Shown: piece by piece, positions 2,399 through 43,975 of the stretch | Layout: every line of letters starts with the position of its first letter | Numbering within the stretch: position 1 is the first letter of the stretch | DNA from: a virus | Taxonomy: Duplodnaviria; Heunggongvirae; Uroviricota; Caudoviricetes | Strand: one strand, 5' to 3' | Length of the DNA: 64,000 nt | IMG/VR virus record: IMGVR_UViG_3300037088_000797 | Coordinates: 1-64,000 of that record | Notes under the pieces: model-generated | What the model was told of the DNA's origin: nothing | The model's input: the letters and a program-made list of their open reading frames with translations, nothing else | Database searches by the model: none | Translations under genes and position numbers: made by a program

Positions 2399-2429
2399 TT
2401 ATACGTAAACAAAATATAAAAGGTTACAA
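2399..2429 (-). promoter_or_regulatory. recurrent promoter-like motif TTGTAACC-N16-CGTATAA (gene-sense)
   Basis: plus strand shows cttatacg...ggttacaa with 16-nt spacer, upstream of gene 2135-2368. Confidence 0.5.
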
Positions 2430-2431
2430 TT

Positions 2432-2749
2432 TTATTTCTTTTCTTCGTAATTAAACCTAAACCAATCATCAAATGAATTGTTATTGGCACGTGCCTGTTC
2501 AAAAGCAGTTTTCAAATCTTCCTTCGTAAAAGTGTCATTCTTTGGCTTTAAGTGCTTCGCTTTTATGTTAACGTAACGTTTAGTTAATGGACGTAGCATC
2601 TTATCCAGTTTCTCGGCAAGACCCACAAATACAGTAGTACCTTCATTATTTACAGCAGAAATTCCTGTAAAAAATTCATCTGGTTCTAAATTGTCATCAA
2701 GTTCAATTAGAATCGGATTTAATTTCTTGATCTCTTCTTTCATTTTCAA
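2432..2749 (-). CDS. hypothetical protein
   Basis: 105 aa ORF. Confidence 0.4.
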   Translation of the reverse strand: MKMKEEIKKLNPILIELDDNLEPDEFFTGISAVNNEGTTVFVGLAEKLDKMLRPLTKRYVNIKAKHLKPKNDTFTKEDLKTAFEQARANNNSFDDWFRFNYEEKK

Positions 2750-3173
2750 GTATTTGATTAAATAATTCTTCTTCTGTCATTGGTATTTCATTGAGATATT
2801 CTTCTTCGGCACATTCTCTCTCCAAATCTTTCCATGATTCATCTTCTCTGCGCTGTTCAGCATCACGTTCTCTCATATCGTCTTCTTGTCTAAGCTGTTC
2901 AATATAACGTTCTTGTTCTTCTTCACGTTCAGCTTCTTCATGTTGTCTGCGCATATAACGTTCATGATCTTCTCTTTCTTGTCTTTCTTCATCTTCACGT
3001 GCTTCTTCACGTTTCTTTTCTTCTCTTGCTTCTTCTTCACGACCATCCCAATAAGCACGATCTTCACCATCATATGCGTATTTATCATGTTCATAGTCAC
3101 TACGATGATTTTTTTCATCGTTATGACCTTGCTTGTTGGCTTCGTCTTCTTCCCAAGAAAAGTAATGTCCCAT
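2703..3173 (-). CDS. highly charged Glu/Arg-rich protein
   Basis: 156 aa, long EEAREE/ERQERED low-complexity tract. Confidence 0.4.
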   Translation of the reverse strand: MGHYFSWEEDEANKQGHNDEKNHRSDYEHDKYAYDGEDRAYWDGREEEAREEKKREEAREDEERQEREDHERYMRRQHEEAEREEEQERYIEQLRQEDDMRERDAEQRREDESWKDLERECAEEEYLNEIPMTEEELFNQILENERRDQEIKSDSN

Positions 3174-3175
3174 GA

Positions 3176-3466
3176 TTATTCTGCTTTTATATAACGATGA
3201 CCATCAACGTAAACATTATGTTCACAATAAAAACCATCTTTATGCTCTGCACGAGTAAAATATTCACTCCACCAGTTTTCAAAGCGTTCTCTTAATTCAG
3301 TGCCGTCTATATTCAATTCATTAAAAACATCACCCAAATCTGTAAAAGAAAATTCATCTGGATTGTTTGTTTTTTTATTTATTTTATAAACAGCAAGTTT
3401 AAGTGAAGCACAATATGCTTTCCATGCCATTTCTTTAGCTGTTGTAGTTGCTGTAATTTTTACCAT
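3176..3466 (-). CDS. hypothetical protein
   Basis: 96 aa ORF. Confidence 0.4.
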   Translation of the reverse strand: MVKITATTTAKEMAWKAYCASLKLAVYKINKKTNNPDEFSFTDLGDVFNELNIDGTELRERFENWWSEYFTRAEHKDGFYCEHNVYVDGHRYIKAE

Positions 3467-3469
3467 AAT

Positions 3470-3709
3470 TTAAATATAATTTACCCAAAAATACCATAAC
3501 CAATAAATATGATCATGAAACCATCCTTCAATTTTAAGTTTATGATCGTTTTGCCAATTGCCAGTATTACACATGTCACAGTTATTATCGTGAACACCAT
3601 GTCTGCTGCAGATAGAATACCAAGTTTCTTTCTTAAGTCCTTTGCCTCTGACAGTTTCAGTACCTTCAAATTTAACGAACGCCATGCGTTTACTTTGTGC
3701 TCGGTTCAT
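3470..3709 (-). CDS. hypothetical Cys/His-rich protein
   Basis: 79 aa; CSRHGVHDNNCDMCNTGNW cluster suggests metal binding; alternative overlapping frame 3481-3669 is hydrophobic. Confidence 0.35.
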   Translation of the reverse strand: MNRAQSKRMAFVKFEGTETVRGKGLKKETWYSICSRHGVHDNNCDMCNTGNWQNDHKLKIEGWFHDHIYWLWYFWVNYI

Positions 3710-3968
3710 ATGTTTCAGTTATTTTCTTTGTGTTTAAGTCAATAAAGATACAACTATCAAATTCCATATCGCCCCCTCCAAATTCATAGTTTATTCTAAT
3801 ATAATTTTCATCAAACACCTGAAAATTTTTATATCCTCTCCAAGTACCTTCTTGTTTTGGATTATCATCACAATATTTATTAAATGCAGTACGTGCAAAC
3901 GTATCTACATTGTTGTAATGCTCTTTATTCGCAATTACTGCCTTTACCGAATCTTTAATTATTGACAT
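3690..3968 (-). CDS. hypothetical protein
   Basis: ORF 3690-4046 in track; internal ATG at 3968 avoids 62-nt overlap with def gene. Confidence 0.4.
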   Translation of the reverse strand: MSIIKDSVKAVIANKEHYNNVDTFARTAFNKYCDDNPKQEGTWRGYKNFQVFDENYIRINYEFGGGDMEFDSCIFIDLNTKKITETYEPSTK

Positions 3969-3984
3969 GTGCCAAAGATATAAA

Positions 3985-4955: not shown

Positions 4956-5776
4956 ACTGTTTGTTTTTTACGTTCAATGTGACTATGTTCGTGGCTTCTT
5001 ATACAAGTTGCACAACTTGAAATAAATACGCCATAAAATATCTTATTAAATTCTTTAAATCTTGCAGGAAAACCACCATCAATATATTCATCAACGTCAG
5101 CATAATTCCATATGCCAAAGCCACATTTGAATATGTCACCAACTTCATCAATAAGAAATGAATACTGGTTCTTTGGATTATGACAATAGCAACCCATCAT
5201 AGAGTATAAACCATATGAATACATTGATCTGCCAATAGGTACTACACTAAAATCACTTTCTTCAAGATCAGAAGTCTTGGTAAGTACTTTATTTTTTTTC
5301 AGTAATTTTGATGCTTTTTCAATATTTTCATTGGTGTGCCACTGATCTTTAGATACCATAACATAGCAATTATCATATTTGCTAACGTGTTTTGCAAATT
5401 CAGGCATATCAACTGCCCAATCACCATTTGTGACCATTCTTGCAATCTTCACTGAAGGCACAAGTATATCAAGTATTTCACGCCAGTCTGGATTGCAATA
5501 CATTTCACCACCCATAAGATTGATCTGGTGAACTTCGTTATTAATTAAAAACTGTGCGATTTTCTTTGCTGTTTCGATAGTCATATGAGTTTCTTTTTTG
5601 GGAGAGCATGAATAACAGCAATGTGAACAGGATTGAGTGCATTTTAATGTGATACGTATGGTTGCATGAAGTTTGCGGGGACACTCTTTCCGTACAGCGC
5701 AAGTTTCGCAATTACAAGTACCTACGCCATTTTTGGCTTTGCATTCTTTCTCCAGACAGATATCACAAGGTTTCAT
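4952..5776 (-). CDS. radical SAM enzyme with extra N- and C-terminal Cys clusters
   Basis: CTQSCSHC = CxxxCxxC radical SAM cluster motif, MGGEM (GGE motif); N-terminal CDICLEKECKAKNGVGTCNCETC and C-terminal CYCH...CGFG...SSCATC cysteine clusters (possible auxiliary Fe-S / SPASM-twitch-like). Confidence 0.7.
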   Translation of the reverse strand: MKPCDICLEKECKAKNGVGTCNCETCAVRKECPRKLHATIRITLKCTQSCSHCCYSCSPKKETHMTIETAKKIAQFLINNEVHQINLMGGEMYCNPDWREILDILVPSVKIARMVTNGDWAVDMPEFAKHVSKYDNCYVMVSKDQWHTNENIEKASKLLKKNKVLTKTSDLEESDFSVVPIGRSMYSYGLYSMMGCYCHNPKNQYSFLIDEVGDIFKCGFGIWNYADVDEYIDGGFPARFKEFNKIFYGVFISSCATCIRSHEHSHIERKKQTV

Positions 5777-5970
5777 TATCGTAATTTCATATGATGAATA
5801 AACTCAAAATTCTTGTCGTTAATACACTCATAACAAATGAGTTTCCATTCAGGATGTTCTTTGAAATGTTCTTCAATGGTGTGTTGATCGAACACTCTTT
5901 TGTGTTCTTCTTCACTCCAAGAGTTACTGAATTTTCCTGTTTCGATATTAAGCCAACAATATTTTTTCAT
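5776..5970 (-). CDS. small CxxC protein, first gene of rSAM-def operon
   Basis: 64 aa, ICYEC motif, ATGA overlap with rSAM gene; preceded by promoter-like motif 5997-6026. Confidence 0.4.
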   Translation of the reverse strand: MKKYCWLNIETGKFSNSWSEEEHKRVFDQHTIEEHFKEHPEWKLICYECINDKNFEFIHHMKLR

Positions 5971-5996
5971 AGAGTAATAATTCTACATTATTATCA

Positions 5997-6026
5997 TTAT
6001 ACGATGTTTTTGTGAAAAGGTTACAC
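5997..6026 (-). promoter_or_regulatory. recurrent promoter-like motif (variant GTGTAACC)
   Basis: ttatacg 5997-6003, ggttacac 6019-6026; upstream of rSAM operon. Confidence 0.45.
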
Positions 6027-6416
6027 TTTTTATAGAAAAAAACTAAGTCACTTAGTAATACGTTTATATAGTCAAAGATAAAGTCCAAGGTAAGGGCAAA
6101 GACCTTTCTCTACACAAAGGCAAAGACAAAAACCAAGTCTTGTTTTTTCCTTCCTCCCGAATAATTATCCCAATCACAATAAGTGAAAGGGTAACTTATT
6201 CTGGCAGTCATGGTCTTTTTTACGAAAAGCCATAAAAAACATTTGGTTTCGTAGAGAAAGCGGTTTTTCCTTTAACGGAGTTATGCGTCCCGGGGGACAC
6301 ATGACTAACTGTCATTTAGATCAATATCTAATTTTATATGTAAGAACGTAGTACTAAGCATAAAAAAGGGTAAACTCGGCTCTTGCTCTATCTACCCTTT
6401 ACCTTAGTTCTTTATT

Positions 6417-8022: not shown

Positions 8023-8180
8023 TATTTATAATACCATTCTTTTGGATGAAAATTCAATAACTCTGGATGTTCTGTCAAAAATTTATCAATAATTGGTTTT
8101 GCTTCTTCATCATTCATATGAAAAGTTGAACAATTGATTGTTTCCATTAGTTCACAAAATTCTTGATCTTCTGCTTCCAT
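8016..8180 (-). CDS. small hypothetical protein (54 aa)
   Basis: ATG at 8180 overlapping stop of upstream gene (TAATG), fills gap. Confidence 0.3.
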   Translation of the reverse strand: MEAEDQEFCELMETINCSTFHMNDEEAKPIIDKFLTEHPELLNFHPKEWYYKYC

Positions 8181-8617
8181 TATAAAAGTATCTCCATTGC
8201 TTCTTTAATTGCTTCACTCAAATCCCAATAATCATCATATGTCATATCCAATTTACCGTTCATTGATATCCTGATATTCTGGTGACGTTTCATCCATTCA
8301 GTTCTTTCATGAGCATATTTTCCATGCGCACAGACATTATTATAATCACTTGGATATTTGGGATGTTTTGGCTGGTATGCTTTTTTATAAACCACAACAA
8401 GCAACTGTACGCCTTCAAGGGTTTTTCTGATTTCGATACGTTCGTCATCACCTTTAATGTGTTTTGCTTTCCATAACTCCATATCTTTCTTGTCCATATT
8501 CGGGACATAAGTACCTGCAATACCAGAATCACTCTGATAAATTGCATTATGCTTTTCGGCACTACGAAATTTCTTTGGTGTTTCGAAAGATAATACGTTA
8601 CTGTTTGCTGGTTTCAT
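8180..8617 (-). CDS. hypothetical protein
   Basis: 145 aa; promoter-like motif 8646-8675 just upstream. Confidence 0.45.
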   Translation of the reverse strand: MKPANSNVLSFETPKKFRSAEKHNAIYQSDSGIAGTYVPNMDKKDMELWKAKHIKGDDERIEIRKTLEGVQLLVVVYKKAYQPKHPKYPSDYNNVCAHGKYAHERTEWMKRHQNIRISMNGKLDMTYDDYWDLSEAIKEAMEILL

Positions 8618-8645: not shown

Positions 8646-8675
8646 TTATACGGATAATAAATGAATTAGTTACAA
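8646..8675 (-). promoter_or_regulatory. recurrent promoter-like motif (variant TTGTAACT)
   Basis: ttatacg 8646-8652, agttacaa 8668-8675. Confidence 0.45.
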
Positions 8676-10313: not shown

Positions 10314-10610
10314 TTATTCTTTCATCCAAGCTATAAATCTGTCCCATAGCGCATGTATCTTAGCACCTATAACTTCAGTTGGATTTAATACTTCGCTGGA
10401 TTTTACTTCAACCAATTGTCTTTCTCTTTTAAGATCAGCAGCAGTTATGTCTTTATTACCACTGTATCTTATTAGTAAAGTACCAATCAGTAATATGGCT
10501 GCAAAAATTGCAAGTTCTGTGTGTTTTAAAAATATTAATGAAATGAACATAATAAAACATATTAGGTTATTCATTACATACATTGCTGCGAGTTGTTGTT
10601 TCTTTTTCAT
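10314..10610 (-). CDS. membrane protein
   Basis: 98 aa, two TM-like segments; promoter-like motif 10635-10665 upstream. Confidence 0.45.
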   Translation of the reverse strand: MKKKQQLAAMYVMNNLICFIMFISLIFLKHTELAIFAAILLIGTLLIRYSGNKDITAADLKRERQLVEVKSSEVLNPTEVIGAKIHALWDRFIAWMKE

Positions 10611-10634: not shown

Positions 10635-10665
10635 TTATACGATGATGAATTAAAAAAGGTTACAA
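10635..10665 (-). promoter_or_regulatory. recurrent promoter-like motif
   Basis: ttatacg 10635-10641, ggttacaa 10658-10665. Confidence 0.5.
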
Positions 10666-12302: not shown

Positions 12303-13088
12303 TTATTTGCCGTACTGTAGACTTACCTTGTCCCTGCTACCATGATTGTAGATTTTCTCCATCAACTGAACATACTGAGTAACAGAAGCACATTTAACCA
12401 ATGCATTTGGTTGTTTCTCCAATTTCTGAAGCATTACTTCATGTTTGTAAATAGATTTCTTGAACAATGGAATCAGTGTTCTTACGAATGAGCCACTGTT
12501 ATAAAATTTGAAGTATGGCTGATATTCTTTTATTTTTGCAGCATTTTCGTATGCTAATTTTAAATCAGCAACTTTAAACTGCCCATCCTGAAAGTAATGG
12601 ATTCTTTCGCTGTCATTTTTCGGTCCTTTCTGAAGTCTCTTTCTGTTGTTGACACCTGCAATGTTGTTTGACATAATTGCTTCGGCAACACCTACTGAAA
12701 ATTCAGGATAATTTCTCATGAATTCATAAAGCTGTAGGTATGACTTTACACCTAATTCTTTATATGATTCAAGAAACGCTGATTTTCCCCATATTTTATC
12801 AACGGTATTGTAACGTTGACAATCCTTTAGTCGTAATCCGGGGATGATGGTGTAATTAACCTCAAGTCCCAATCTCTTACAGGCTTCAATCCTGTGCTGT
12901 CCGTCAATAACTTCGAAAAATTCATTCAAAGTTATTAATGTGAATAGATACTGTTTCTTAAAAGACTTCATTAATCTTACAACATGGGGTTCGTTGACAG
13001 GTCTGTTACCTGCAATCCTTTTAAACATGTCATAATTTTTGGTTGTAAAAACCGATGTTTCACTTTTTAATGTACTCATTGTTTTCAA
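12303..13088 (-). CDS. ParB-like nuclease domain protein
   Basis: FEVIDGQHRIEACKRLG matches ParB/Srx DGxHR core. Confidence 0.55.
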   Translation of the reverse strand: MKTMSTLKSETSVFTTKNYDMFKRIAGNRPVNEPHVVRLMKSFKKQYLFTLITLNEFFEVIDGQHRIEACKRLGLEVNYTIIPGLRLKDCQRYNTVDKIWGKSAFLESYKELGVKSYLQLYEFMRNYPEFSVGVAEAIMSNNIAGVNNRKRLQKGPKNDSERIHYFQDGQFKVADLKLAYENAAKIKEYQPYFKFYNSGSFVRTLIPLFKKSIYKHEVMLQKLEKQPNALVKCASVTQYVQLMEKIYNHGSRDKVSLQYGK

Positions 13089-13124: not shown

Positions 13125-13154
13125 TTATACGAAAGAAAATTAAAAATGTTACAA
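13125..13154 (-). promoter_or_regulatory. recurrent promoter-like motif (variant TTGTAACA)
   Basis: ttatacg 13125-13131, tgttacaa 13147-13154. Confidence 0.45.
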
Positions 13155-14474: not shown

Positions 14475-15206
14475 TTAATTGTTAATATTTTTTTTCCAGT
14501 TAAAATATGACTTTACACCACCGCAATGTAATTTGCTCATACCTTTCATTTTTAAATTATGTTCATCACAAAAATTTGTAAGATTAGTTATATTTTTATA
14601 TAAAATACCATCTGGACTAATAAATGAATATGAATGAGAATAATCTTTCACCCATCCCTTATAGTAATAAATTTTATTATTCAATAATAAACTAATTGAT
14701 ACATTATCTAATTTGTTTTCTCTACAAAATTGTCTAATATTGGTAAAAGTAACATGTTTATTTTCTGGTGTTATTAATTCATATGTTTTATTTGCTTTTT
14801 CTCCCCATGTCTTAGACATTTGTTCTCTAACTGCAAGCGGTATTGTTTTACCTAAATGACTTTTGGACATTTGATTTATTGTTTTGGTAGTAAATTGACG
14901 ACCACTACAATTACCTGCAATCCAACACATATTATAATTTAAATTTGTGGGATAATTAGCTTTTCTATTATCTAAGTATTTTTGTTCTTCAATTAATATT
15001 TGATTATCATCAACATTTTTTAAAATACGAAATTCAAATTCATTTTTTCCATATTTATTATATGCTCTTTGAAGATATAAACTATGATGAATATTAGCTT
15101 TTAAATCCGTTTTATGTCTTATCCAACGAGATTTACCATTACCAACAGCACTCCCAATATATGTTGCATTATTAATTTTATTAACTATTGAATAAATAAC
15201 TCCCAT
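14475..15206 (-). CDS. GIY-YIG homing endonuclease
   Basis: N-terminus GVIYSIVNKINNATYIGSA = GIY...YIG motif. Confidence 0.7.
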   Translation of the reverse strand: MGVIYSIVNKINNATYIGSAVGNGKSRWIRHKTDLKANIHHSLYLQRAYNKYGKNEFEFRILKNVDDNQILIEEQKYLDNRKANYPTNLNYNMCWIAGNCSGRQFTTKTINQMSKSHLGKTIPLAVREQMSKTWGEKANKTYELITPENKHVTFTNIRQFCRENKLDNVSISLLLNNKIYYYKGWVKDYSHSYSFISPDGILYKNITNLTNFCDEHNLKMKGMSKLHCGGVKSYFNWKKNINN

Positions 15207-15241
15207 GCGATATCAATTTGTTATAAATACTCGCCAATACA

Positions 15242-15622
15242 TCATTTGCACATTTCTTTAAGTTCTTCCCATGTAGGCTTCGTGCCTTCTGGTACAAAAA
15301 ATTCAATACCTTCTTGTGGGTCTCTAACACGACCATAGTATAATATATGTTTCTTTTCTTGTTCGTTATAAACTAAGTACGCACTGTCATATGGTGCACC
15401 ATCCATTACAAAATGATCAACGGTAGATGAATGAGTAAAATATTCTTCTTTACCAGATAACTCCGTGATTTGAAATTTACGCAAATCCCACCAGTCCTTT
15501 ACAAAATTTCCAGTGTTGAAGAATTTCTTTTGTTCTGGTTTACCATAATGTATTTCAACAGATTTGTAACCAAGATTTTCCTTGTCACTGCCTTCATCGT
15601 AATTAATGGTTGTAAATGCCAT
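15242..15622 (-). CDS. hypothetical protein
   Basis: 126 aa; promoter-like motif 15640-15670 upstream. Confidence 0.45.
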   Translation of the reverse strand: MAFTTINYDEGSDKENLGYKSVEIHYGKPEQKKFFNTGNFVKDWWDLRKFQITELSGKEEYFTHSSTVDHFVMDGAPYDSAYLVYNEQEKKHILYYGRVRDPQEGIEFFVPEGTKPTWEELKEMCK

Positions 15623-15639: not shown

Positions 15640-15670
15640 TTATACGATATCCTTAATTAAAAGGTTACAA
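15640..15670 (-). promoter_or_regulatory. recurrent promoter-like motif
   Basis: ttatacg 15640-15646, ggttacaa 15663-15670. Confidence 0.5.
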
Positions 15671-16204: not shown

Positions 16205-16719
16205 TCCTGACTTTTATCACCAGTGTTGTTATCACAAAAATAAAATGCCATATATAAATTCAGCACTTCTGCAAAGATCAATGCATCAATCAGTTTCTCA
16301 GCACGTCTTTTAGCTGCACCCCAATCACCATCCCTGTCACCTTTTGACCAAGCATTATATGCGTCATCATGATGTTCAATGATTTCTAACACGTCTTTAT
16401 CTGTGATAAAATCTTCCGCAAATCTGCGTGCAATTGTGCCATGATGATTTTCGCCATGCTTTGGCTTTGTTCTGTCAACCTTATGTTTAAAGGTATCATG
16501 CAGTATTGCAATTTGACGTAGTTTTTCTCTTTCTTCGTCAGTTTCTGCATGTTTATCAACGTTCGCCAATACTTCTTTAATGTGATAAATAACCTGACCT
16601 TCGGGATGCCCCCTACGAGCTTTGCCGTAAAGAGCACCCTCTTCGAAGTCAGGACATCCAGCGATATTTCTCTCAACCTGATTTTCAGGTTTGATTATAT
16701 CTTCTATTAGTTTATTCAT
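16171..16719 (-). CDS. HD-domain phosphohydrolase (candidate RNA 3'-end healing phosphoesterase)
   Basis: RGHPEG...ILHDTFKH...HHD metal-binding His/Asp pattern of HD superfamily; 4-nt overlap with upstream Pnk-like kinase gene. Confidence 0.6.
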   Translation of the reverse strand: MNKLIEDIIKPENQVERNIAGCPDFEEGALYGKARRGHPEGQVIYHIKEVLANVDKHAETDEEREKLRQIAILHDTFKHKVDRTKPKHGENHHGTIARRFAEDFITDKDVLEIIEHHDDAYNAWSKGDRDGDWGAAKRRAEKLIDALIFAEVLNLYMAFYFCDNNTGDKSQDCYYWFAGLLT

Positions 16720-17105
16720 AATTGTATATTAAATTTTTTTCTCATGTTTTCTATTGTTTCGTCAGTAACGCCATGAGAGTTAACGCCACCGTGACGGTTT
16801 TCAACGATTACACTGAAAACTTTATATCCGTATACTTCAGCCAATTCATAGTAACGCTTCATGTCTCGTGTGTGCACAGATGTGTTTGCCACCACGATTT
16901 TATCAGCACCAACTTTCATATATCTCTCACACTTACGCTCACACCAGTTATGTGCTGCATAAAGTTTCCATGCTGCCCAATCATATACTCCGTCAACCAT
17001 CATATAATCATCAGCACAGCATATAGCTTTAGTGTTAAGCAGTTCTGCAAATGAGTTTTTACCTGCTCCCGGTAACCCCCTAACTATTATAAGCACATTT
17101 TTCAT
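16716..17105 (-). CDS. polynucleotide kinase-like P-loop kinase
   Basis: Walker A GLPGAGKN; CCADDY and IVVANT..RDMKRYYELAEVYGYKV resemble T4 Pnk kinase-domain motifs (RDDY, ISDTNL, FAKEYGWKV). Confidence 0.6.
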   Translation of the reverse strand: MKNVLIIVRGLPGAGKNSFAELLNTKAICCADDYMMVDGVYDWAAWKLYAAHNWCERKCERYMKVGADKIVVANTSVHTRDMKRYYELAEVYGYKVFSVIVENRHGGVNSHGVTDETIENMRKKFNIQL

Positions 17106-17112: not shown

Positions 17113-17142
17113 TTATACGAATATTTTTCGAATTGGTTACAA
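17113..17142 (-). promoter_or_regulatory. recurrent promoter-like motif
   Basis: ttatacg 17113-17119, ggttacaa 17135-17142; upstream of Pnk-like kinase/HD pair. Confidence 0.5.
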
Positions 17143-17144: not shown

Positions 17145-17981
17145 TTAATTTAATTTTACAATATTTTTTGCAATTAATTCATTTAATTGATATTGTGGAA
17201 CAATTCCAAAATCTAACACTTTAAATTTAAGTTCATTTTCTTTACAATATTCAATAACGGATGCAAATTTCAATAAATTTAGTGGCGTATTATGTAATTT
17301 TTTTGGTTTGACTTCTATCAAGTATTTGTTATCAACAATAAAATCTGGTGAATAAGTTCTTTCATTACCAGTATAACTTAAATATTTAATTCTTATTTTT
17401 TCTGCCGATATAATTTTTAATTTAAAACGTTCACAGATCAATATAAATTTTAATTCGTGTAGGCTTCTGAAAAAGAAACTATTATACCATCCGCTAATAC
17501 CATTACCCGATTTTTGGGGTGGTTCTTTTCCATACATGGGATTATTTTTACCTTTACTTTTTGATGACCATTTTTTTCTACGATTACTATCTCGTTTATT
17601 TGCCTCTTCAATTCCATATTTTTCAACCCAAATATCAAACACTGTTTTTCCGTACATTGAATTATTTTCACCTGATGAAATTATTCTCATTTTATCTCTG
17701 AATTCAGGTGTTTTGTATGAATCAGAATTATTTAAATGTGATTGAGATATCAAATTTTTACTTTCTATGCTATGTACATGATTTTGAAATCCATTCTTTC
17801 TTTCACCAGATTTTACTTCCGCATTTATAATGTCAATAGTACTACCATAGTTTTTATATCTTATTTTACTGGAACATGACCTGCATGGTCTTTTATTATG
17901 ATCACATTGATTTCTACTATATTTTGTTTTATGTGTTATTATTTCATTACATTCAGGACATTTTCTTGTGTATTCTTCCAT
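17145..17981 (-). CDS. zinc-finger protein, possible endonuclease
   Basis: CPECNE...CRSC zinc ribbon at N-terminus; C-terminal ERTYSPDFIVDNKYLIEVKPKK resembles PD-(D/E)xK-type motif. Confidence 0.35.
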   Translation of the reverse strand: MEEYTRKCPECNEIITHKTKYSRNQCDHNKRPCRSCSSKIRYKNYGSTIDIINAEVKSGERKNGFQNHVHSIESKNLISQSHLNNSDSYKTPEFRDKMRIISSGENNSMYGKTVFDIWVEKYGIEEANKRDSNRRKKWSSKSKGKNNPMYGKEPPQKSGNGISGWYNSFFFRSLHELKFILICERFKLKIISAEKIRIKYLSYTGNERTYSPDFIVDNKYLIEVKPKKLHNTPLNLLKFASVIEYCKENELKFKVLDFGIVPQYQLNELIAKNIVKLN

Positions 17982-18758: not shown

Positions 18759-18788
18759 TTATACGAAATTAAATTGGATTAGTTACAA
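18759..18788 (-). promoter_or_regulatory. recurrent promoter-like motif (variant)
   Basis: ttatacg 18759-18765, agttacaa 18781-18788. Confidence 0.45.
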
Positions 18789-20108: not shown

Positions 20109-20138
20109 TTATACGAACATTTCTTAAATAAGTTACAA
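20109..20138 (-). promoter_or_regulatory. recurrent promoter-like motif (variant)
   Basis: ttatacg 20109-20115, agttacaa 20131-20138. Confidence 0.45.
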
Positions 20139-26286: not shown

Positions 26287-26317
26287 TTATACGTATTAAA
26301 GTAAATAAAAGTTACAA
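26287..26317 (-). promoter_or_regulatory. recurrent promoter-like motif (variant)
   Basis: ttatacg 26287-26293, agttacaa 26310-26317; only 5 nt from ATG of gene 26048-26281. Confidence 0.45.
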
Positions 26318-29119: not shown

Positions 29120-29950
29120 TTAAGGCATATCTGGAATTAAATTATAAAGAAATTCCATGTCTTGTGTAAAAATTGGACATTCAACACTTTTCCAAACCGT
29201 TCTAAAATAATTTGTTGGTTCTTTAACATACGATTTAAAAACATCTGTCTTCATTTCAACAGTTTCTTTTATGATAAGTCTTCCTCTTTTTTGTTTTGCG
29301 GGATAGTCGTTCCAATTAATACCCCTTTGAAATATCATTTCTTGTTTTTGATCACTATTTTTGCCATCTACTTCTTTTTGACTGTAAAGATTACGTGCAA
29401 CACTTGAAATAGAATTTCTTGTAGCATCTTTTTGTCTCCAAACTATCATATTTCCAACTTCTGTTTTAGATGGTATTGTGAATACACGAGCATCAAAAGT
29501 TGCAAGTTTCATATTAAGAATGTCTTTCTCATATGGTTTAATTGAAATAAAACCATCTGAATCAATGCTGGTGGAATTTTTTATAATTCTTAATAATCTC
29601 AATCTGTTGAATTCGGCAGTAGCCAAACCAGCAGCAACACTAACGATCTTCTGGATATTACCATCAAACCATGCATCAGTACCAATTGCATCAAAATCAG
29701 TCATAAGAATAGAAATTTCATCAGACTGCACAAATGCAAATTTAGTACCTTGTATGTTCTTACAAAGATAAGAAGCAGTTGCATCCATATCATCAATAAG
29801 ACCCTGATCAAAAGGTTGTATTAAACCTCTGGTATAAGTGTGAAATGCCTTACCATCAACACGGATTATTGTATATGTCCTACGTGGAAGCAGAAACCTT
29901 GTTCTATCCTCATAATAGGATTTCATGCGATCTCCAAGTTCATCTTTCAT
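29120..29950 (-). CDS. Thg1-like protein (tRNA-His guanylyltransferase family, 3'-5' nucleotidyltransferase)
   Basis: MKSYYEDRTRFLLPRRTYTIIRVDGKAFHTYTR and FAFVQSDEISILM match Thg1 N-terminal catalytic blocks (RxDGxxFH, QSDE). Confidence 0.8.
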   Translation of the reverse strand: MKDELGDRMKSYYEDRTRFLLPRRTYTIIRVDGKAFHTYTRGLIQPFDQGLIDDMDATASYLCKNIQGTKFAFVQSDEISILMTDFDAIGTDAWFDGNIQKIVSVAAGLATAEFNRLRLLRIIKNSTSIDSDGFISIKPYEKDILNMKLATFDARVFTIPSKTEVGNMIVWRQKDATRNSISSVARNLYSQKEVDGKNSDQKQEMIFQRGINWNDYPAKQKRGRLIIKETVEMKTDVFKSYVKEPTNYFRTVWKSVECPIFTQDMEFLYNLIPDMP

Positions 29951-31096: not shown

Positions 31097-31960
31097 TTAT
31101 TTCAACGTACTGTTAAGTTTCTGTTTGAATAATTGAACTGTTTTATTACCAATAGCTTTACTTGCTTCACGTGATTCAATTATCTCACCTTTACCTTCCC
31201 TGTATACATCTTCAATCATTGCTTTAATGATTGTAGGTACACCTTCCATGCTGATATCAACAGGTAGTTTCTGAAGTACGTGTTCCAGACGAAGATTGGT
31301 AACCCATTCTTCAGCAATTGCTTTAGCTTCTTCAAGAACTTTAACCTGCTCTGGAGTTACCTCACGTTTAGATTTAGTTTCCATTTGTTCATCTGGTTTA
31401 TACTTACATATAACTCTCTCACCATTATTAGTTTTCATTTCAATCAATGGGCGGAGAACAATACCTTCACGTTTTTGTGGCTCTACAATACCATTACGAA
31501 CAGCTTGAACTGAATTACTGTCTCTTTCTGCAGTAAGCGTTTCCAAGTCTGTGGTAATCTTATTGTAAGATACAAACTCCAGACTAAATTGTTTGCAAAC
31601 ATCTTCTGCATTTGGTACATTAAGCCAAACATCACCAACGTAAACGTCAAAGCCAATAAATTTAAGAACTTTGCCATATCTAAATGATTGACCCTGTTGT
31701 TTACCACCATATGCTTCGCCATAAATGGTTACATCAACATCTGGAAAAATTTCAGCAAATTTGGCTTTAAGAAAGTCTTTGTTGAATAATGCAGCAAATG
31801 CTACATTACTTTCGCCACCACTACTGTAACGAACGTCTTTGCTTTCAAATTTCCAACCAATATGTGTTGATGTGCCATGAATTTTTTCCATAGCATAACA
31901 TTCTTTAAATAAAAGAATTGTCTGTGACTTATATAGGTTCTCTATATGTAGGTATCCCAT
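31097..31960 (-). CDS. RNA ligase, Rnl2 family
   Basis: Motif I EKIHGTS (T4 Rnl2 EKIHGTN, lysine nucleophile), YGEAYGGKQQG (cf. FGEFAGPGIQKN), EGIVLRP (cf. EGYVLKP), ICKYK (motif V). Confidence 0.8.
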   Translation of the reverse strand: MGYLHIENLYKSQTILLFKECYAMEKIHGTSTHIGWKFESKDVRYSSGGESNVAFAALFNKDFLKAKFAEIFPDVDVTIYGEAYGGKQQGQSFRYGKVLKFIGFDVYVGDVWLNVPNAEDVCKQFSLEFVSYNKITTDLETLTAERDSNSVQAVRNGIVEPQKREGIVLRPLIEMKTNNGERVICKYKPDEQMETKSKREVTPEQVKVLEEAKAIAEEWVTNLRLEHVLQKLPVDISMEGVPTIIKAMIEDVYREGKGEIIESREASKAIGNKTVQLFKQKLNSTLK

Positions 31961-31973: not shown

Positions 31974-32486
31974 TTAGTAAGTATTTATATAATTTTTAAT
32001 ATCATCGATGTTAAGTTTATTTTTTTCAATGAATCCAATAAGTATGTTGCAACTTGAACATAATAATGCTCTGTTTTTATTTGTTTCATGTGAATGATCA
32101 ACTGCCAACATTTTTTTATTTTCTTCTTCAGTTCTATGACAAATAGCACAACCATTACCTTGATTATTTAATATTACGTTATATTCTTCAAGCGTAATAC
32201 CGTATTTCCTTTTTAATGTGCTGTTTCTATATTTTAATTTATCTCTCATATATTGATCTTTTTTCGCATTTTTTCCTTTTTCAGTATCATAATATATTTC
32301 CAACATTTCACGATTACATTCTTTACAATGAGAACCTATTTTGCCTCTTGTTTTCATTGTAGAAAATTCATCAAGGTCTTTTACTTTTTTACATCGTGGA
32401 CAATATTTTTTATGTTGCTTTAATAATTCTTTTGCTTTAAGTGATGATATTTTTAATTTCATTGTAATTTTAACATTAATAAACAA
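31974..32486 (-). CDS. endonuclease VII-like HNH endonuclease with N-terminal zinc finger
   Basis: CAICHRTEEENKKMLAVDHSHETNKNRALLCSSCN matches T4 endoVII / HNH motif; CPRCKK...HCKECN zinc finger. Confidence 0.7.
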   Translation of the reverse strand: MFINVKITMKLKISSLKAKELLKQHKKYCPRCKKVKDLDEFSTMKTRGKIGSHCKECNREMLEIYYDTEKGKNAKKDQYMRDKLKYRNSTLKRKYGITLEEYNVILNNQGNGCAICHRTEEENKKMLAVDHSHETNKNRALLCSSCNILIGFIEKNKLNIDDIKNYINTY

Positions 32487-32687: not shown

Positions 32688-32812
32688 CAACCAGACAGGT
32701 TTAGTTGCCAACTTTCCTTTGTGACGGAGCTTCCTTTATCTCGATGAACGGGGGTTCATCAGGTAGGCATGTTATCCGTCCTTTCAACACGCAGCCATCG
32801 TGTTAGTAATCG

Positions 32813-32917
32813 AGCGCAGTTCGGGATTCGAACCCAAAAGATGTTGTAATTACTGGTGCACCTTCTACATCTACCGTACCTTCCGATACGTGCCTTAACC
32901 AATTAGACTACCCACGC
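32813..32917 (-). tRNA. tRNA-like gene (about 105 nt, atypical; isotype undetermined)
   Basis: On minus strand: acceptor GCGTGGG/ACTGCGC (2 GU + 1 mismatch), U8-A9, D-arm GTCT-AATTGGTTA-AGGC, canonical T-arm TTGGG-TTCGAAT-CCCGA, discriminator T; anticodon region irregular (CGTA stem with 8-nt loop UCGGAAGG) and a 36-nt extra region with AGATGT/ACATCT stem. Confidence 0.4.
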
Positions 32918-33204
32918 ATAAAAGAAATCTTTCTGTCCGTCCCAAGCAACGAAATGGCTTTTCAGTCCGCTATGGGTCTGTGTGGCTGTCATAATGCGCA
33001 TCGTTGAGAGGCGTGCCAACCTACTGCTATCCTTCGATAAACTACACTCTACTTGAAATTGAGTGAACTTTCGTTATAAGTGAATCGTCTGTTTGCATAG
33101 ACTGGACTTTTTAGAGACTTCCAGAATTATTAACGCAGAACCTTATAGTTTACCTACAGGCAGAAAGACTATGTTTTCAAAGAACTATTTGCAAAGTTAC
33201 TATT

Positions 33205-37249: not shown

Positions 37250-37840
37250 TTAAAAAGTTTTATGTGTAAAAAAAATTTTTATATTCTCTACTATTGTGGG
37301 TGTTAAGCCACAGTACTTGTCACATTGAAAGAAATTGAATTGTTGTTTTAATAACATATCCGAATCATCGTCTATTATTGCATATTGATGAAAATCAAAA
37401 TAATGCACACCAAACCACTTCATACAATTATCTTTAAGCCATTTACTTATTTCAGTACCTCTTTCATATCCTGTATATGGTGTTTTATCGATAATTGTAA
37501 AGGTTGCACCGCAATAATTAAATATCTTTTGCAAGTCTTCTACCGACCAACTACTTCTCAATGAAGCACTAATAACGATTGCTGAATTGGTTTCCTTGCA
37601 AAGCCAATTCAATAAACCGATACGCATTTCGCAGGTTTCGCTTTTATAATACTCCAGATCGGTGAGTTGCTTTTGTTTGAGTTGCTTACGAAGATACTTT
37701 TTAACTATCTTATATAAAGGTATACCATCATAACGTTCAAGTACTGCAAACTTCTCGGTATAGAAAAGCTGGCAATTCAGAACGCCATCATGATCAAGAA
37801 AAATAACATGATCGAATTTATTTACTTCTGGTTCAACCAT
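37250..37840 (-). CDS. HAD-like hydrolase (putative phosphatase)
   Basis: HVIFLDHDGVLNC resembles HAD motif I (hhhhDxDx[TV]); similar to gene 40241-40726. Confidence 0.4.
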   Translation of the reverse strand: MVEPEVNKFDHVIFLDHDGVLNCQLFYTEKFAVLERYDGIPLYKIVKKYLRKQLKQKQLTDLEYYKSETCEMRIGLLNWLCKETNSAIVISASLRSSWSVEDLQKIFNYCGATFTIIDKTPYTGYERGTEISKWLKDNCMKWFGVHYFDFHQYAIIDDDSDMLLKQQFNFFQCDKYCGLTPTIVENIKIFFTHKTF

Positions 37841-38079
37841 TCTTTTGCTAATCTGTTATCACGTTCTTCAAATGTTTCGACAGTTACTTCACCACCTGTA
37901 TGACTTTGAATGAGTATATCTAAATCATTTCTAAAAGATTCAAGTTCATCGGTATTATTAAAATAAAATGTACCTTCAAGATTGTAGGTCACTGGACTTT
38001 CGCCCTCTACAATTATGTGAAAACCATTAATTTTCATGATTTTTAAAAGATTGGTTAATAATTTTTTTGTAATTTTCAT
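37822..38079 (-). CDS. hypothetical protein
   Basis: 85 aa; promoter-like motif 38085-38115 immediately upstream. Confidence 0.4.
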   Translation of the reverse strand: MKITKKLLTNLLKIMKINGFHIIVEGESPVTYNLEGTFYFNNTDELESFRNDLDILIQSHTGGEVTVETFEERDNRLAKEWLNQK

Positions 38080-38084
38080 GTCCT

Positions 38085-38115
38085 TTATACGTATGAGTTT
38101 TAAAAAAGGTTACAA
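38085..38115 (-). promoter_or_regulatory. recurrent promoter-like motif
   Basis: ttatacg 38085-38091, ggttacaa 38108-38115; 6 nt from ATG of gene 37822-38079. Confidence 0.5.
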
Positions 38116-38162
38116 ATATTCTTGCAAATATAACTATTTTATTTTAATTACAACTTTTTTTT

Positions 38163-39272: not shown

Positions 39273-39290
39273 AAACTAAATTTAAATAAA

Positions 39291-39842
39291 ATGAGTGTAA
39301 ATAAATTAAGTCATCTTATGATTGACCTTGAAACAATGGGTAAAGGAAGCAATTCTGCAATTGTATCAATTGGTGCGGTTGAATTTGAATTACAGTCAGG
39401 CGAAACTGGCGAAGAATTCTATACAAGAGTGGATTTACAATCTTGTCTTGACCTTGGACTTAAAGTTAATGCCAGTACAATTTTCTGGTGGTTAATGCAA
39501 AGTGAAAAAGCACGAAAAGAAATTTGTAAAGAAGGTAAACCTTTAAGAGAAGCATTGTTTGATTTAAGTGTTTTTATTAAATTACTTAAAACAGATGTCC
39601 AGACTTGGGGAAATGGTGCAAGATTTGATCTTGGCATTCTTGAAGACGCTTACGATGCTTGTGGTAGTCATATTACTCCTTGGGGTTTCAGGTTTGAAAG
39701 AGACGTAAGAACGCTTGTTTCTTTTGCTCCTGCGATTAAAGATCATTATCCCTTTACAGGGGTAGAACATAATCCAATTGATGATTGCAAATACCAAATC
39801 GGTTATTGTAGCGCAATTTGGAATAAATTAAACACAAAATAA
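39291..39842 (+). CDS. DEDDh 3'-5' exonuclease (DnaQ-like fold)
   Basis: Exo I MIDLETMG, Exo II WGNGARFDLGIL, Exo III HNPIDDCKYQ. Confidence 0.7.
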   Translation: MSVNKLSHLMIDLETMGKGSNSAIVSIGAVEFELQSGETGEEFYTRVDLQSCLDLGLKVNASTIFWWLMQSEKARKEICKEGKPLREALFDLSVFIKLLKTDVQTWGNGARFDLGILEDAYDACGSHITPWGFRFERDVRTLVSFAPAIKDHYPFTGVEHNPIDDCKYQIGYCSAIWNKLNTK

Positions 39843-39845
39843 ACT

Positions 39846-40193: not shown

Positions 40194-40197
40194 GATT

Positions 40198-40228
40198 TTG
40201 TAACCTTTTAAATAAGGATTACGTATAA
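40198..40228 (+). promoter_or_regulatory. recurrent promoter-like motif (plus orientation)
   Basis: ttgtaacc 40198-40205, cgtataa 40222-40228 (cgtataata); 13 nt before ATG 40241. Confidence 0.5.
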
Positions 40229-40240
40229 TACGCATTTATA

Positions 40241-40726
40241 ATGAAAAATGAAAAACGATATATTTTTTTAGACCTTGATAGCGTTATGATAACAGAAAGG
40301 GAACATCATTCAGAAAATTTACACCCAAAATACATGGTTGACCCGTTTGACCCTATGTGTGTCGAAGTGTTAAACGAGATTACTGAAATTATGCACCCTC
40401 TTATTATACTCACCAGTGATAGAAGATTACGATTTAAACTCAGTGAAATAAATGAAGTTTTTAAATATAATGGTGTTATTTCACCAGTTAAAGATTATAC
40501 TCCTGATTTTTGGGGTACACAATTTACAAAACTTCAAGATGCTGATATGTGTCGTGGATTCGAAATTCTTAGGTATGTTCACCAATATCAAATTGAAAAT
40601 TATGCCGTAGTTGATGATATGAATCTCATGGGTTGGGTTTCAGATCATTTTGTTTGGTGTACAAATTCAACTGACGGACTTAACCAAACTGGACTTAAAG
40701 AAAAAATATTGAAAATTTTAATGTAA
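40241..40726 (+). CDS. HAD-like hydrolase (putative)
   Basis: YIFLDLDSVMIT N-terminal DxDx[TV]-like motif; promoter-like motif 40198-40228 upstream. Confidence 0.4.
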   Translation: MKNEKRYIFLDLDSVMITEREHHSENLHPKYMVDPFDPMCVEVLNEITEIMHPLIILTSDRRLRFKLSEINEVFKYNGVISPVKDYTPDFWGTQFTKLQDADMCRGFEILRYVHQYQIENYAVVDDMNLMGWVSDHFVWCTNSTDGLNQTGLKEKILKILM

Positions 40727-40730
40727 AACA

Positions 40731-42170: not shown

Positions 42171-42203
42171 TTTGTATTGTTTAACCTTTAAAAACTCAAA
42201 ATT

Positions 42204-42818
42204 ATGTTAACATTTATTTTATCATTTATTGCAACAGTAATAATTTCACTGTGTTTTTTCAAGAGTAAATTCTGGGAAAATAGATACCTTGTTTTATTAA
42301 TCGGTACAGGTGTGGCACTCATTGCCACCCTTGTACTGAATTATTCTGTTCGTGGTAAACTTGCCACAAAAACTGAGATTGCATGGAAAACGCCAGTTAA
42401 ATTCTTTTATGTCAATGATTCGGTGCTTAATGTATCGGATAGTATTGCAATCTTTAAAAACGGTAAATATGATTTCAATAAGGCATCTGGCAGTGAATTC
42501 ATTAAACGTGACACCACAAAAAGTCAGAGAAAACTCAGCATTGTCTTTTTTGGCAGAAATCCAAAAACTCCATTAGTTGGTTATATCAATTTAAAGGGTA
42601 ACACTAATTATAACGCTTTAGAAGACATTTATATTGCACCAAGCGAATCTGACACAGTAGCTTATATGGCAAGAAAAAAACTTCTTTATGACGTTAAACC
42701 AAGCAATTGGATAACTGGCTTTACTTTTCCAAGAAAAATGGCATACACTTGTATGTACATTTCGCCAAAAGAATATGCTAAATTACCCAAAGTATTAATC
42801 AAAAAACTCCCATTCTAA
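42204..42818 (+). CDS. membrane protein
   Basis: 204 aa, two N-terminal TM helices. Confidence 0.45.
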   Translation: MLTFILSFIATVIISLCFFKSKFWENRYLVLLIGTGVALIATLVLNYSVRGKLATKTEIAWKTPVKFFYVNDSVLNVSDSIAIFKNGKYDFNKASGSEFIKRDTTKSQRKLSIVFFGRNPKTPLVGYINLKGNTNYNALEDIYIAPSESDTVAYMARKKLLYDVKPSNWITGFTFPRKMAYTCMYISPKEYAKLPKVLIKKLPF

Positions 42819-43063
42819 TGAAAACCACATTATTACAAATCTTTTTAAAGAAAGAAAAAATTCACTGGAAACGTATCGGGCAGATGTTCGGTAAATACAG
42901 TAATTGGATTGGTAAACTAACCTTTGGTGTTATTGTCGCAGCTTTATTAATCGTAGTGCATTACGCAATGACATTCATGCACTTGTTTTATGAATTCGGA
43001 CTATTTATTTTCGCTCGTGACATGTTCAGAGCAAACTTACAGAAACTTGCATTAAAAGTATAA
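42818..43063 (+). CDS. small membrane protein
   Basis: 81 aa, TM helices. Confidence 0.4.
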   Translation: MKTTLLQIFLKKEKIHWKRIGQMFGKYSNWIGKLTFGVIVAALLIVVHYAMTFMHLFYEFGLFIFARDMFRANLQKLALKV

Positions 43064-43066
43064 ATT

Positions 43067-43195
43067 ATGACACTAAAAGAATTTCTTGATTATGTAGGAC
43101 AGGATAGTAACCATTTTTGGGGTTTCATACTTGTGTTATTAATCGTTGGCGGTACTCTTAGAGAAACCGCAAAATATATATTCAGAAGAAAATGA
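43067..43195 (+). CDS. small membrane protein (42 aa)
   Basis: ATG 43067, TGA overlaps ATG of next gene; hydrophobic FWGFILVLLIVGG. Confidence 0.3.
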   Translation: MTLKEFLDYVGQDSNHFWGFILVLLIVGGTLRETAKYIFRRK

Positions 43196-43710
43196 GTTTA
43201 TTTGTAACAGACGTAGAGTCAGACGGACAAATTATTGGCAGACACAGTATGGTATGTTTTGGTGTGGTTAAACTCACACCAGAACTTGACACCACTTTTT
43301 ATGGTAAAATTAAACCAATATCTGATATTTATGACCCAGATGCACTTGCTGTAAGTGGGTTCAGTAGGGAAGAACACCTTAAATTTGATCATCCAGAAGA
43401 TGTTATGTTAGCTTTTGCTGTTTGGTTAAAAGAAAATTCAGTCGGCAGACCCATATTAATTTCTGATAATAATGGCTATGATGCCAGTTGGATTAATTAT
43501 TATTTTCGTGTATATCATGGTGAAAATCCTTTTGGTTGGTCTTCAAGACGAATTGGTGACCTGTATTGTGGGATGATGAAAGATACGTGGGCAGGTTGGA
43601 AAAAACTTAGGGTAACACGTCATACTCACAATCCTGTCGATGACGCTATGGGTAATGCAGAAGCACTACTTAAAATGAAAGCTATGGGACTTAAAATTGA
43701 TACTAAATAA
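43192..43710 (+). CDS. DEDDh 3'-5' exonuclease (second copy, distinct sequence)
   Basis: Exo I FVTDVESDG, Exo II ISDNNGYDASWI, Exo III HNPVDDAMGNAEAL. Confidence 0.7.
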   Translation: MSLFVTDVESDGQIIGRHSMVCFGVVKLTPELDTTFYGKIKPISDIYDPDALAVSGFSREEHLKFDHPEDVMLAFAVWLKENSVGRPILISDNNGYDASWINYYFRVYHGENPFGWSSRRIGDLYCGMMKDTWAGWKKLRVTRHTHNPVDDAMGNAEALLKMKAMGLKIDTK

Positions 43711-43712
43711 TT

Positions 43713-43934
43713 ATGGCAAGATACGTAAAAGACACACCCAGACTAACCGTTAAATTTATTAACGCAGATACTGAAGCAACAATACTTGAATTAAAAGACA
43801 GAACATGGATGAATATTGGAGAATTACTTAATGATCATTCAGTTGATGCTGTTGTTAAAAGCGAAATAAAAGATAAAGAACTACCTGAAAACATAATGGT
43901 GCTCGTGGTAGCTGAATACACATTGCAGAAATAA
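43713..43934 (+). CDS. hypothetical protein
   Basis: 73 aa ORF. Confidence 0.4.
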   Translation: MARYVKDTPRLTVKFINADTEATILELKDRTWMNIGELLNDHSVDAVVKSEIKDKELPENIMVLVVAEYTLQK

Positions 43935-43944
43935 GTTTGTTTTT

Positions 43945-43975
43945 TTGTAACCTTTTTAATGTTACTTTCGTATAA
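43945..43975 (+). promoter_or_regulatory. recurrent promoter-like motif (plus orientation)
   Basis: ttgtaacc 43945-43952, cgtataa 43969-43975; upstream of gene 44002. Confidence 0.5.

Follow-up and report, generated by a model that had tools for sequence, protein, structure and literature searches.

A repeated two-part intergenic motif in an uncultured jumbo phage reads as a set of ECF-type promoters, probably served by the phage's own sigma factor

What reads a two-part DNA motif that recurs in the gaps between the genes of a giant phage? The question is raised by positions 1 to 64,000 of the IMG/VR virus record IMGVR_UViG_3300037088_000797 (Caudoviricetes), a stretch of 64,000 nucleotides (nt) that we call the window, in which TTGTAAC is repeatedly followed, at a nearly fixed distance, by CGTATAA. 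We propose that these elements are promoters of the extracytoplasmic function (ECF) type, that they belong to an uncultured jumbo phage of a probable Bacteroidota host, and that they are read by the phage's own 227-residue sigma factor, whose gene abuts the window; we put the probability of this reading at roughly 0.7. In kind, this would probably be an ordinary phage transcription switch, operating in an uncultured giant-phage lineage.

The repeat itself is real. Twelve exact matches to TTGTAAC-N16/17-CGTATAA occur in the window, where dinucleotide-preserving shuffles lead one to expect 0.00, and a thirteenth copy (5997–6026, minus strand) departs from the pattern at its first base only (GTGTAAC); all are listed in Table 1. 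Relaxing the search to at most two mismatches yields three further matches against 1–10 in shuffles, which is the level of noise. Each half is also frequent when counted alone, with 19 occurrences of CGTATAA against 6.4 expected and 25 of TTGTAAC against 15.3. The two halves are 17 nt apart at seven of the 13 sites and 16 nt apart at the other six, and the base that follows TTGTAAC is C in eight sites, T in four and A in one. The original prediction, made from the letters of the window, had counted at least 13 copies and given the spacing as 15–16 nt after an eight-base first half ending in C, T or A. A search of the whole window returns the 12 exact copies at the coordinates given there, and the spacing is the same distance as 16–17 nt after the seven-base half.

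The placement of the copies is as regular as their sequence. All 13 are confined to non-coding gaps (5.9% of the window in total), and none falls inside a credible gene as judged by a greedy gene call that covers ~94% of the window, such that the motif does not occur at similar density in coding DNA. All 13 share the strand of the gene downstream, and they are spread over three strand blocks (1–20 kb and 21–38 kb, both minus; 38–47.6 kb, plus), with no copy in the fourth (47.6–64 kb, minus). The intergenic position, the orientation and the presence in three blocks had all been anticipated, as had the short distance to the ATG at two sites, 38085 and 26287, which is 5 nt at both. Across the 13 sites the ATG follows CGTATAA at distances of 4 to 41 nt, and because this spacing varies the motif is not a translation signal. 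Among the over-represented intergenic words of the window this is the sole bipartite motif, the others being the host −7 box TAnnTTTG and the single-element word AGTATTTAT; a literature search for the motif words returned irrelevant papers only. From its sequence and setting, the motif looks like a functional element with a promoter role.

The class of promoter is suggested by the details of both halves. In ECF promoters, AAC forms the core of the −35 element and CGT that of the −10 element, with a spacer of 14–17 nt between the two (PMC5758882), and in the sigmaW promoter, 'tGAAACnTTTt ... CGTA', a T-tract adjoins the −35 element, a trait of several ECF groups that is not universal (PMC5758882). 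The AAC core is present at 13 of 13 sites, and GTAAC is kept in relatives chosen independently of the motif; CGTATAA is likewise present at 13 of 13, with CGTAT retained in distant relatives. Spacers in the window measure 16 or 17 nt only, and in a collection of 227 distinct sites from the window and its relatives, retrieved with a 16–17 nt pattern, they measure 16 nt in 142 cases and 17 nt in 85. The four positions after AACn, which lay outside every search pattern, are 61–76% T over the 227 sites against ~34% expected (the window has ~32% GC), and 8 of the 13 window sites read AACCTTTT. Judged by sequence, the motif is thus a canonical ECF (group 4) promoter architecture, AAC / N16–17 / CGTA with a T-tract, and the earlier suggestion of a distinct promoter class gives way to a known one (PMC5758882).

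Other signals fit the sites poorly. A sigma-70 promoter was rejected because TTGTAA and TATAAT stand 19–20 nt apart within the motif, as against TTGACA-N17(±1)-TATAAT, and sigma-70-type matches in the first 20 kb number 98 against 99.2 in shuffles. The motif is not a Bacteroidota sigmaA promoter (−33 TTTG, −7 TAnnTTTG) either, because neither TTTG nor TAnnTTTG follows CGTATAA at any site. These two exclusions had been made in the original prediction, and they stand. RNA structure was rejected as well, the sites being unstructured (mean z −0.01 versus shuffles). A terminator scan of 1–20 kb gave uninformative output.

A candidate reader lies immediately beside the window. The last five nucleotides of a minus-strand gene (..AC TGA) occupy its right edge, and the remainder can be read in a contig (L008) that is 99.57% identical to window positions 49418–64000 (14.6 kb) and aligns right up to position 64000. 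The gene sits directly upstream of a gene for an 1108-residue Mre11/Rad50-like protein (window 60599–63925). The flanking contigs, by which we mean contigs encoding the same proteins, were found through an exact look-up of a neighbouring 383-residue protein; an exact look-up of the 1108-residue edge protein found it not on record. The 227-residue product exceeds the curated cut-offs (in brackets) of TIGR02937 with 72.2 bits (42.9), of PF04542 Sigma70_r2 with 42.2 (24), of PF07638 Sigma70_ECF with 33.4 (21.1) and of PF04545 Sigma70_r4 with 24.7 (24.1). Sigma regions 2 and 4 are present; regions 1.1 and 3 are absent, with region 2 starting at about residue 20 and no match to Sigma70_r3. The nearest solved structures by sequence are Rhodobacter sphaeroides RpoE (ECF SigE, 2q1z) and Bacillus subtilis SigW, at ~27–30 bits, and the protein falls far under the equivalog cut-offs for SigW, SigX and SigZ.

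An AlphaFold model built on a 47-sequence alignment shows a confident four-helix sigma2 domain, a disordered linker of ~65 residues and, modelled at low confidence, a helical sigma4 domain. A Foldseek search of the Protein Data Bank (PDB) returned ECF sigmas almost exclusively, including sigmaE region 2 on −10 DNA, SigC and SigW, with template-modelling (TM) scores of 0.66–0.82 over ~90 residues of sigma2. By domain content and by model, the protein beside the window is an ECF-type sigma. Its linker (residues ~95–160, predicted local distance difference test (pLDDT) scores of 31–38) is rich in N, S, T and G; in the ECF sigmas of cells the linker is usually short. Read off the alignment, linker length across the phage sigma family runs from ~25 to ~75 residues, with hypervariable composition. 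Region 2 is moderately conserved and the recognition helix of region 4.2, LTSSTVSNRINYIKTKLKK, is nearly invariant across the family. No sigma was seen within the window itself in Pfam searches of the concatenated proteins of 1–52.6 kb and PHROGs searches of most unannotated proteins of 100–700 residues, the segment 52.6–64 kb (its four largest chunks) being covered in part, without Pfam, and PHROGs leaving aside 56.0–60.6 kb.

The link between sigma and motif comes from relatives. In phages whose FtsH-like protein is 64–88% identical, GTAAC, CGTA and the spacing are kept at orthologous gaps while the spacer sequence has diverged, and the 5-nt distance to the ATG of a gene whose product begins MKITKK is conserved in four lineages. 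The alignment of the gap behind the FtsH-like gene in nine relatives is partly scrambled by gene insertions, so that direct comparison is limited to four or five sequences. In IMG/VR, a search for the exact motif found at least 120 stretches on at least ~108 contigs, with clusters of up to 10 copies in 13.8 kb, and a profile-guided scan placed the sigma family on at least 66 viral contigs of up to 371 kb. At least eight of these 66 sigma-bearing contigs also hold the exact motif, where a rough estimate of chance gives ~0.003 (108 × 66 / 2.9 million contigs). The motif is identical in genomes whose sigma is only 42–45% identical (L080, L107, L124 and L145), including genomes of 322 and 340 kb with a sigma of 42–44% identity. 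The near-invariance of region 4.2, beside a hypervariable linker, parallels the invariant −35 box. The other over-represented word, AGTATTTAT, has no −35 partner and is therefore ill suited as the target of a sigma whose sigma4 domain is conserved. The idea of a phage-encoded sigma, one of several put forward in the original prediction, is accordingly the one we favour; that this protein reads the sites, and with what timing and from which start points, we infer from correlations.

The switch might operate as follows. TGTAAC would serve as the −35 element read by sigma region 4.2, aided by the adjoining T-tract, and CGTA(TAA) as the −10 element read by region 2, with 16–17 nt being the usual ECF spacing. 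The sigma gene belongs to an operon headed by a primase-like gene, which carries a conserved TATATTTG box 4–6 nt before its ATG in three divergent lineages; the Mre11/Rad50 gene is preceded by TTG-N20-TATATTTG. Since this host-type box, and not the motif, precedes the sigma operon, the sigma is probably expressed by host sigmaA. The host sigmaA holoenzyme would thus transcribe the sigma operon together with other genes that have TAnnTTTG boxes, after which the phage sigma would bind the host core RNA polymerase and turn on some 13 promoters in the window and more elsewhere in the genome. Within the gene blocks of the window, motif sites and host-type boxes are intermixed, and the ECF-type promoters would drive small genes of unknown function along with genes for RNA repair and nucleotide metabolism.

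Several points weigh against this assignment. The sigma gene lies outside the window, and its connection to it depends on a contig of 99.6% identity; the sigma4 part of the model has a pLDDT of only 45–55. No anti-sigma domain was found in the genes that neighbour the sigma (primase-like, Mre11/Rad50-like fusion, and HSP20 in distant relatives), and no copy of the motif was found upstream of the sigma gene, whether in ~6 kb in L007 and L008 or in L013–L017, L150 and L152. The operon therefore lacks the autoregulatory promoter found in many groups of cellular ECF sigmas, a trait that is not defining; a co-encoded anti-sigma factor is likewise common without being universal. Shared ancestry confounds the finding of sigma and motif on the same contigs, and covariation between sigma and promoter was rejected as a source of evidence: the motif core is identical in all clades, and this constancy leaves nothing to exploit. 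A host ECF sigma, for instance an envelope-stress sigma induced by infection, could read the sites while the phage sigma recognises something else. Flavobacterial ECF promoters also have a CGT −10 box (PMC9723704), Bacteroidota encode many ECF sigmas with overlapping specificities (PMC9723704, PMC5758882), and the phage sigma operon is not preceded by the motif. We nonetheless hold this to be unlikely, as the phage has a two-domain sigma of its own with a nearly invariant region 4.2, and the motif is the only conserved bipartite motif for it to read. Sigma and motif, moreover, share contigs across 42–78% sigma identity, and an identical motif in phages of presumably different hosts suits a phage-borne reader better.

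A quite improbable alternative is that the host sigmaA holoenzyme is remodelled by a phage activator or appropriator, in the manner of the MotA/AsiA middle promoters of T4 with their −30 box and −10-like TATAAT. It would explain the TATAA(T) in the −10 half, the interleaving with host-type promoters (T4 likewise mixes its middle promoters with early ones) and the presence of T4-like genes in the phage. The Bacteroidota sigmaA consensus, however, is TAnnTTTG at −12 to −5 rather than TATAAT (PMC9723704), an invariant CG before TATAA and an AAC box are hallmarks of ECF promoters (PMC5758882), sigma-70-type matches are not enriched, and Pfam and PHROGs scans of most window proteins, covering 52.6–64 kb in part, turned up no transcription factor, MotA and AsiA included. 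Since the window spans only a fifth or so of the genome, and jumbo phages can carry several sigmas or RNA polymerases of their own (PMC7824862), another phage-encoded machine from outside the window, be it a second sigma or a phage RNA polymerase, is conceivable; given that an ECF sigma is at hand, that the motif agrees point for point with the ECF consensus and that neither the window nor its flanks showed genes for RNA polymerase subunits, we regard it as very improbable. That the motif is no promoter at all is scarcely credible. It is a conserved intergenic repeat, as might be expected of an operator, of a signal for RNA processing or structure, or of a small mobile repeat, and the spacers at 15640 and 40198 contain small inverted repeats (CCTTTT..AAGG). 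Against this stand the lack of RNA structure, a spacer sequence that is free to vary, a variable distance to the ATG, and an orientation with genes that extends from the window to its relatives: over 109 distinct sites, a real open reading frame (ORF) starts within 80 nt in 89% of cases in the sense direction and 14% in the antisense. The halves form neither direct nor inverted repeats and have no dyad symmetry, and this, with the strict directionality, makes an operator unlikely. Of the other roles floated at the outset, those of a regulator operator and an RNA processing signal are hence set aside, and recognition by the phage's own ECF-type sigma remains our preferred reading.

If that sigma reads the sites, some of the resulting messages should lack a leader. 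The gap after CGTATAA is 4–5 nt at 20109, 26287 and 38085 and 7 nt at 17113; if the CGT occupies −12 to −10, a 5-nt gap would put +1 on the A of the ATG and give a leaderless mRNA. Over 97 sites with a downstream ORF, the gaps show sub-peaks at 5 and 7 nt and are 8 nt or shorter in 19. From their spacing, several motif promoters should therefore give leaderless mRNAs. Such transcripts make up ~5.5% of mRNAs in Flavobacterium psychrophilum (PMC9723704), and a concentration of them, if true, would be notable for a phage whose host phylum rarely uses them. At two further promoters (window 18759–18750 and 8646–8630) an ATG after 4 nt opens only a mini-ORF, of 11 and 4 codons, ahead of the real gene; either may be a leaderless upstream ORF or just an ATG that arose by chance.

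How does this arrangement compare with known systems? The closest likeness in promoter sequence is to the sigmaW/sigmaX/sigmaV-type (ECF01/ECF30) of B. subtilis, which shares the AAC −35 core, the T-tract, the CGTA −10 element and a spacer within 14–17 nt (PMC5758882), and, of the solved structures, SigW is one of those that match the phage sigma best. Differences from the sigmaW type are found in both promoter and protein: the phage −35 element is TTGTAAC rather than TGAAAC and its −10 element is extended to CGTATAA(T), while the sigma is phage-borne, distantly related, equipped with a disordered linker rich in N, S, T and G, and encoded without an adjoining anti-sigma gene or an autoregulatory promoter. 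Other phage sigma cascades include those of SPO1 gp28 and gp33/34. In phiEco32 and 7-11, middle and late transcription is driven by a sigma that the phage encodes, gp36 in phiEco32, which is classed as an ECF sigma. In role, phiEco32 and 7-11 are the closest precedent, since there a phage sigma redirects the host core RNA polymerase after early expression by the host sigma (PMC4331800). Their promoters, by contrast, are single elements, tAATGTAtA or TGATGT(TATA), with no AAC −35 or CGT −10 (PMC4331800), and they also precede the sigma gene itself (PMC4331800), unlike the motif here. A promoter of the phiEco32/7-11 type was rejected on this difference in consensus (PMC4331800) and on a tblastn search of the sigma against 50,697 deposited phage records, which gave no match. 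The early-to-middle switch of T4 is similar in that a second promoter class is interleaved with the host type, in the same blocks and orientation, before small genes and genes of nucleic-acid metabolism; it differs from the present case in appropriating the host primary sigma through MotA/AsiA, where we would see replacement by an ECF-type sigma. The SM6 promoters of F. psychrophilum, compared here by description, are of host ECF type with a CGT −10 box (PMC9723704), but they are host promoters for type IX secretion system (T9SS) and envelope genes with a cognate anti-sigma system (PMC9723704).

The phage itself is an uncultured jumbo phage, of whose genome the window represents about one fifth. 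Metagenomic protein collections hold 181 homologues of the sigma, on contigs of up to 363 kb. Cultured close relatives were not found: blastn of 38.0–45.9 kb matched only 524 bp at 71% identity in a 735-kb uncultured phage. Genomes of ~320–340 kb whose sigma is only ~45% identical keep the order of the genes around it, which runs T5orf172, two unknown genes, primase-like, sigma, Mre11/Rad50, dCMP deaminase and, further on, DUF3008. Its T4-like gene content (endonuclease VII, RNA ligase, dCMP deaminase, T4_Y16D on flanking contig L001, and the Metallophos/AAA_23 fusion that is Mre11/Rad50-like) gives the lineage a resemblance to the sigma-bearing 'group 2' jumbo phages (PMC7824862). The host is probably a member of the Bacteroidota, judging from the lack of a Shine–Dalgarno signal (8 of 123 genes, which is background level), the enrichment of TAnnTTTG in non-coding DNA (21 against 5.5 expected) and a CHU_C (T9SS) domain protein in one relative. 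A search of GTDB genomes for cellular relatives of the sigma gave one match only, a 362,763-bp scaffold labelled as a Candidatus Paceibacterota metagenome-assembled genome (JBAZIW010000001.1, L219), which encodes the sigma at 78% identity. Because its length equals that of an IMG/VR phage contig (IMGVR_UViG_3300029288_000055), the scaffold is probably a jumbo-phage genome mis-binned as a Candidate Phyla Radiation (CPR) bacterium.

Phage-encoded sigma cascades and ECF promoter architecture are already known in kind. What the window offers is a concrete transcription map for a giant-phage lineage never cultured, in which three candidate promoter classes are legible: the host −7 box, the ECF-type motif and AGTATTTAT. 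The first two of these allow temporal gene classes to be predicted, and a sigma–promoter pair so compact and highly conserved is a potential orthogonal expression switch for Bacteroidota, where standard parts fail. A more speculative picture, which we consider rather unlikely in its entirety, is of a jumbo-phage lineage with a private ECF sigma (hypervariable disordered linker, no anti-sigma, no autoregulation) and dozens of AAC/CGTA promoters per genome, many starting at the ATG, whose specificity perhaps overlaps the host's envelope-stress ECF regulon so that the stress of infection pre-activates phage genes.

Table 1. Copies of the two-part motif in the window, with the gene end at its right edge; promoter assignments and leaderless starts are predictions
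Position	Strand	Feature	Relation to genes	Remarks
2399..2429	−	Predicted ECF-type promoter, TTGTAACC-N16-CGTATAA	30 nt upstream of 77-residue gene 2135–2368	Copy also in L001
5997..6026	−	Predicted ECF-type promoter, variant GTGTAACC...CGTATAAT	26 nt upstream of gene 5776–5970	Kept in L001; operon runs on to radical-SAM-like and peptide deformylase genes
8646..8675	−	Predicted ECF-type promoter	Upstream of 145-residue gene 8180–8617	
10635..10665	−	Predicted ECF-type promoter	Upstream of gene 10314–10610	Right behind hairpin and T-run (gggagaagaaattctccc-ttttt)
13125..13154	−	Predicted ECF-type promoter	Upstream of ParB-like gene 12303–13088	
15640..15670	−	Predicted ECF-type promoter	Upstream of 126-residue gene 15242–15622	
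17113..17142	−	Predicted ECF-type promoter	7 nt before ATG of gene 16716–17105 (AAA_33 kinase-like)	HD-domain gene next
18759..18788	−	Predicted ECF-type promoter	4 nt to ATGATG of 11-codon mini-ORF; 41 nt to gene 18223–18717	
20109..20138	−	Predicted ECF-type promoter	4 nt before ATG of gene 19961–20104 (predicted leaderless)	NADAR operon next
26287..26317	−	Predicted ECF-type promoter	5 nt before ATG of gene 26048–26281 (predicted leaderless)	Begins right after FtsH-like stop codon; orthologues in L018, L019, L025, L027, L028
38085..38115	−	Predicted ECF-type promoter	5 nt before ATG of gene 37822–38079 (predicted leaderless)	Heads RNA-repair / ATP-grasp / DNA-ligase block; 5-nt gap kept in L018, L025, L027; host-type TATATTTG box just upstream, 38125–38132
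38067..38096	+	Weak divergent copy, two mismatches (TTGTAAT-N16-CGTATGA); function doubtful	Overlaps site 38085 on opposite strand	
40198..40228	+	Predicted ECF-type promoter	12 nt before ATG of HAD_SAK_2 gene 40241–40726	Right after thioredoxin gene
43945..43975	+	Predicted ECF-type promoter	26 nt upstream of 232-residue gene 44002–44700	
63996..64000	−	Last 5 nt (..AC TGA) of phage ECF-type sigma gene		Remainder beyond window, read in L008:5893–6576

The genes led by the motif are mostly small and without known function. Others encode a peptide deformylase, a ParB-like protein, an HD/kinase pair, NADAR, HAD 'Swiss-army-knife' RNA-repair modules, ATP-grasp and DNA ligase. The overlapping copies at 38067–38115 mark the divergent junction of the two main gene blocks, with host-type −7 boxes on both flanks.

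The window has further features of its own. Genes of homing-endonuclease type are dense (14475–15206, 17145–17981, 20379–21089, 28290–29051 and 31974–32486) and comprise GIY-YIG with NUMOD3 (twice), TnsA-like with NUMOD3, LAGLIDADG and endonuclease VII/HNH-like types; that at 20379–21089 is the sole plus-strand gene in a minus-strand block. An RNA-repair and tRNA toolkit (29120–29950, 31097–31960, 37250–37840, 40241–40726 and 39291–39842) includes a Thg1-like tRNA-His guanylyltransferase, an RNA ligase, two HAD_SAK_2 'Swiss-army-knife' domains and an Rv2179c-like 3'-5' exoribonuclease, and the window also encodes NADAR, NUDIX and peptide deformylase. Two long non-coding stretches, 5971–6416 (446 nt) and 32712–33204 (~490 nt), hold tiny ORFs only, and tRNA and Rfam scans of the long gaps gave no match; unannotated RNAs, remnants of introns and decayed genes are all conceivable explanations for the two stretches.

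Host-type −7 boxes (TAnnTTTG, mostly TATCTTTG or TATATTTG) stand in the gaps at 3973, 6073, 7395, 10146, 20333, 24273, 28285, 33192, 38125, 38193, 45156, 49489, 52171 and 63941, often only 4–6 nt from the ATG, and by this spacing their transcripts may also be near-leaderless. The word AGTATTTAT occurs 11 times in the window against 2.3 expected, nine of them in non-coding DNA against 0.6. It is found at 15223, 17996, 29068, 52123, 55924, 56837, 57455 and 58134 on the minus strand and at 20185 and 46211 on the plus strand, is concentrated in 52–58 kb, and lies co-oriented with genes 6–25 nt before the ATG; elsewhere it appears in L008 (736–817), L150 (5639–5718) and L152 (5535–5624). With no conserved −35 partner and its retention upstream of an orthologous gene in three lineages, AGTATTTAT may, by analogy with TATAAATA of T4, be a promoter class of −10 elements only, perhaps a late one.

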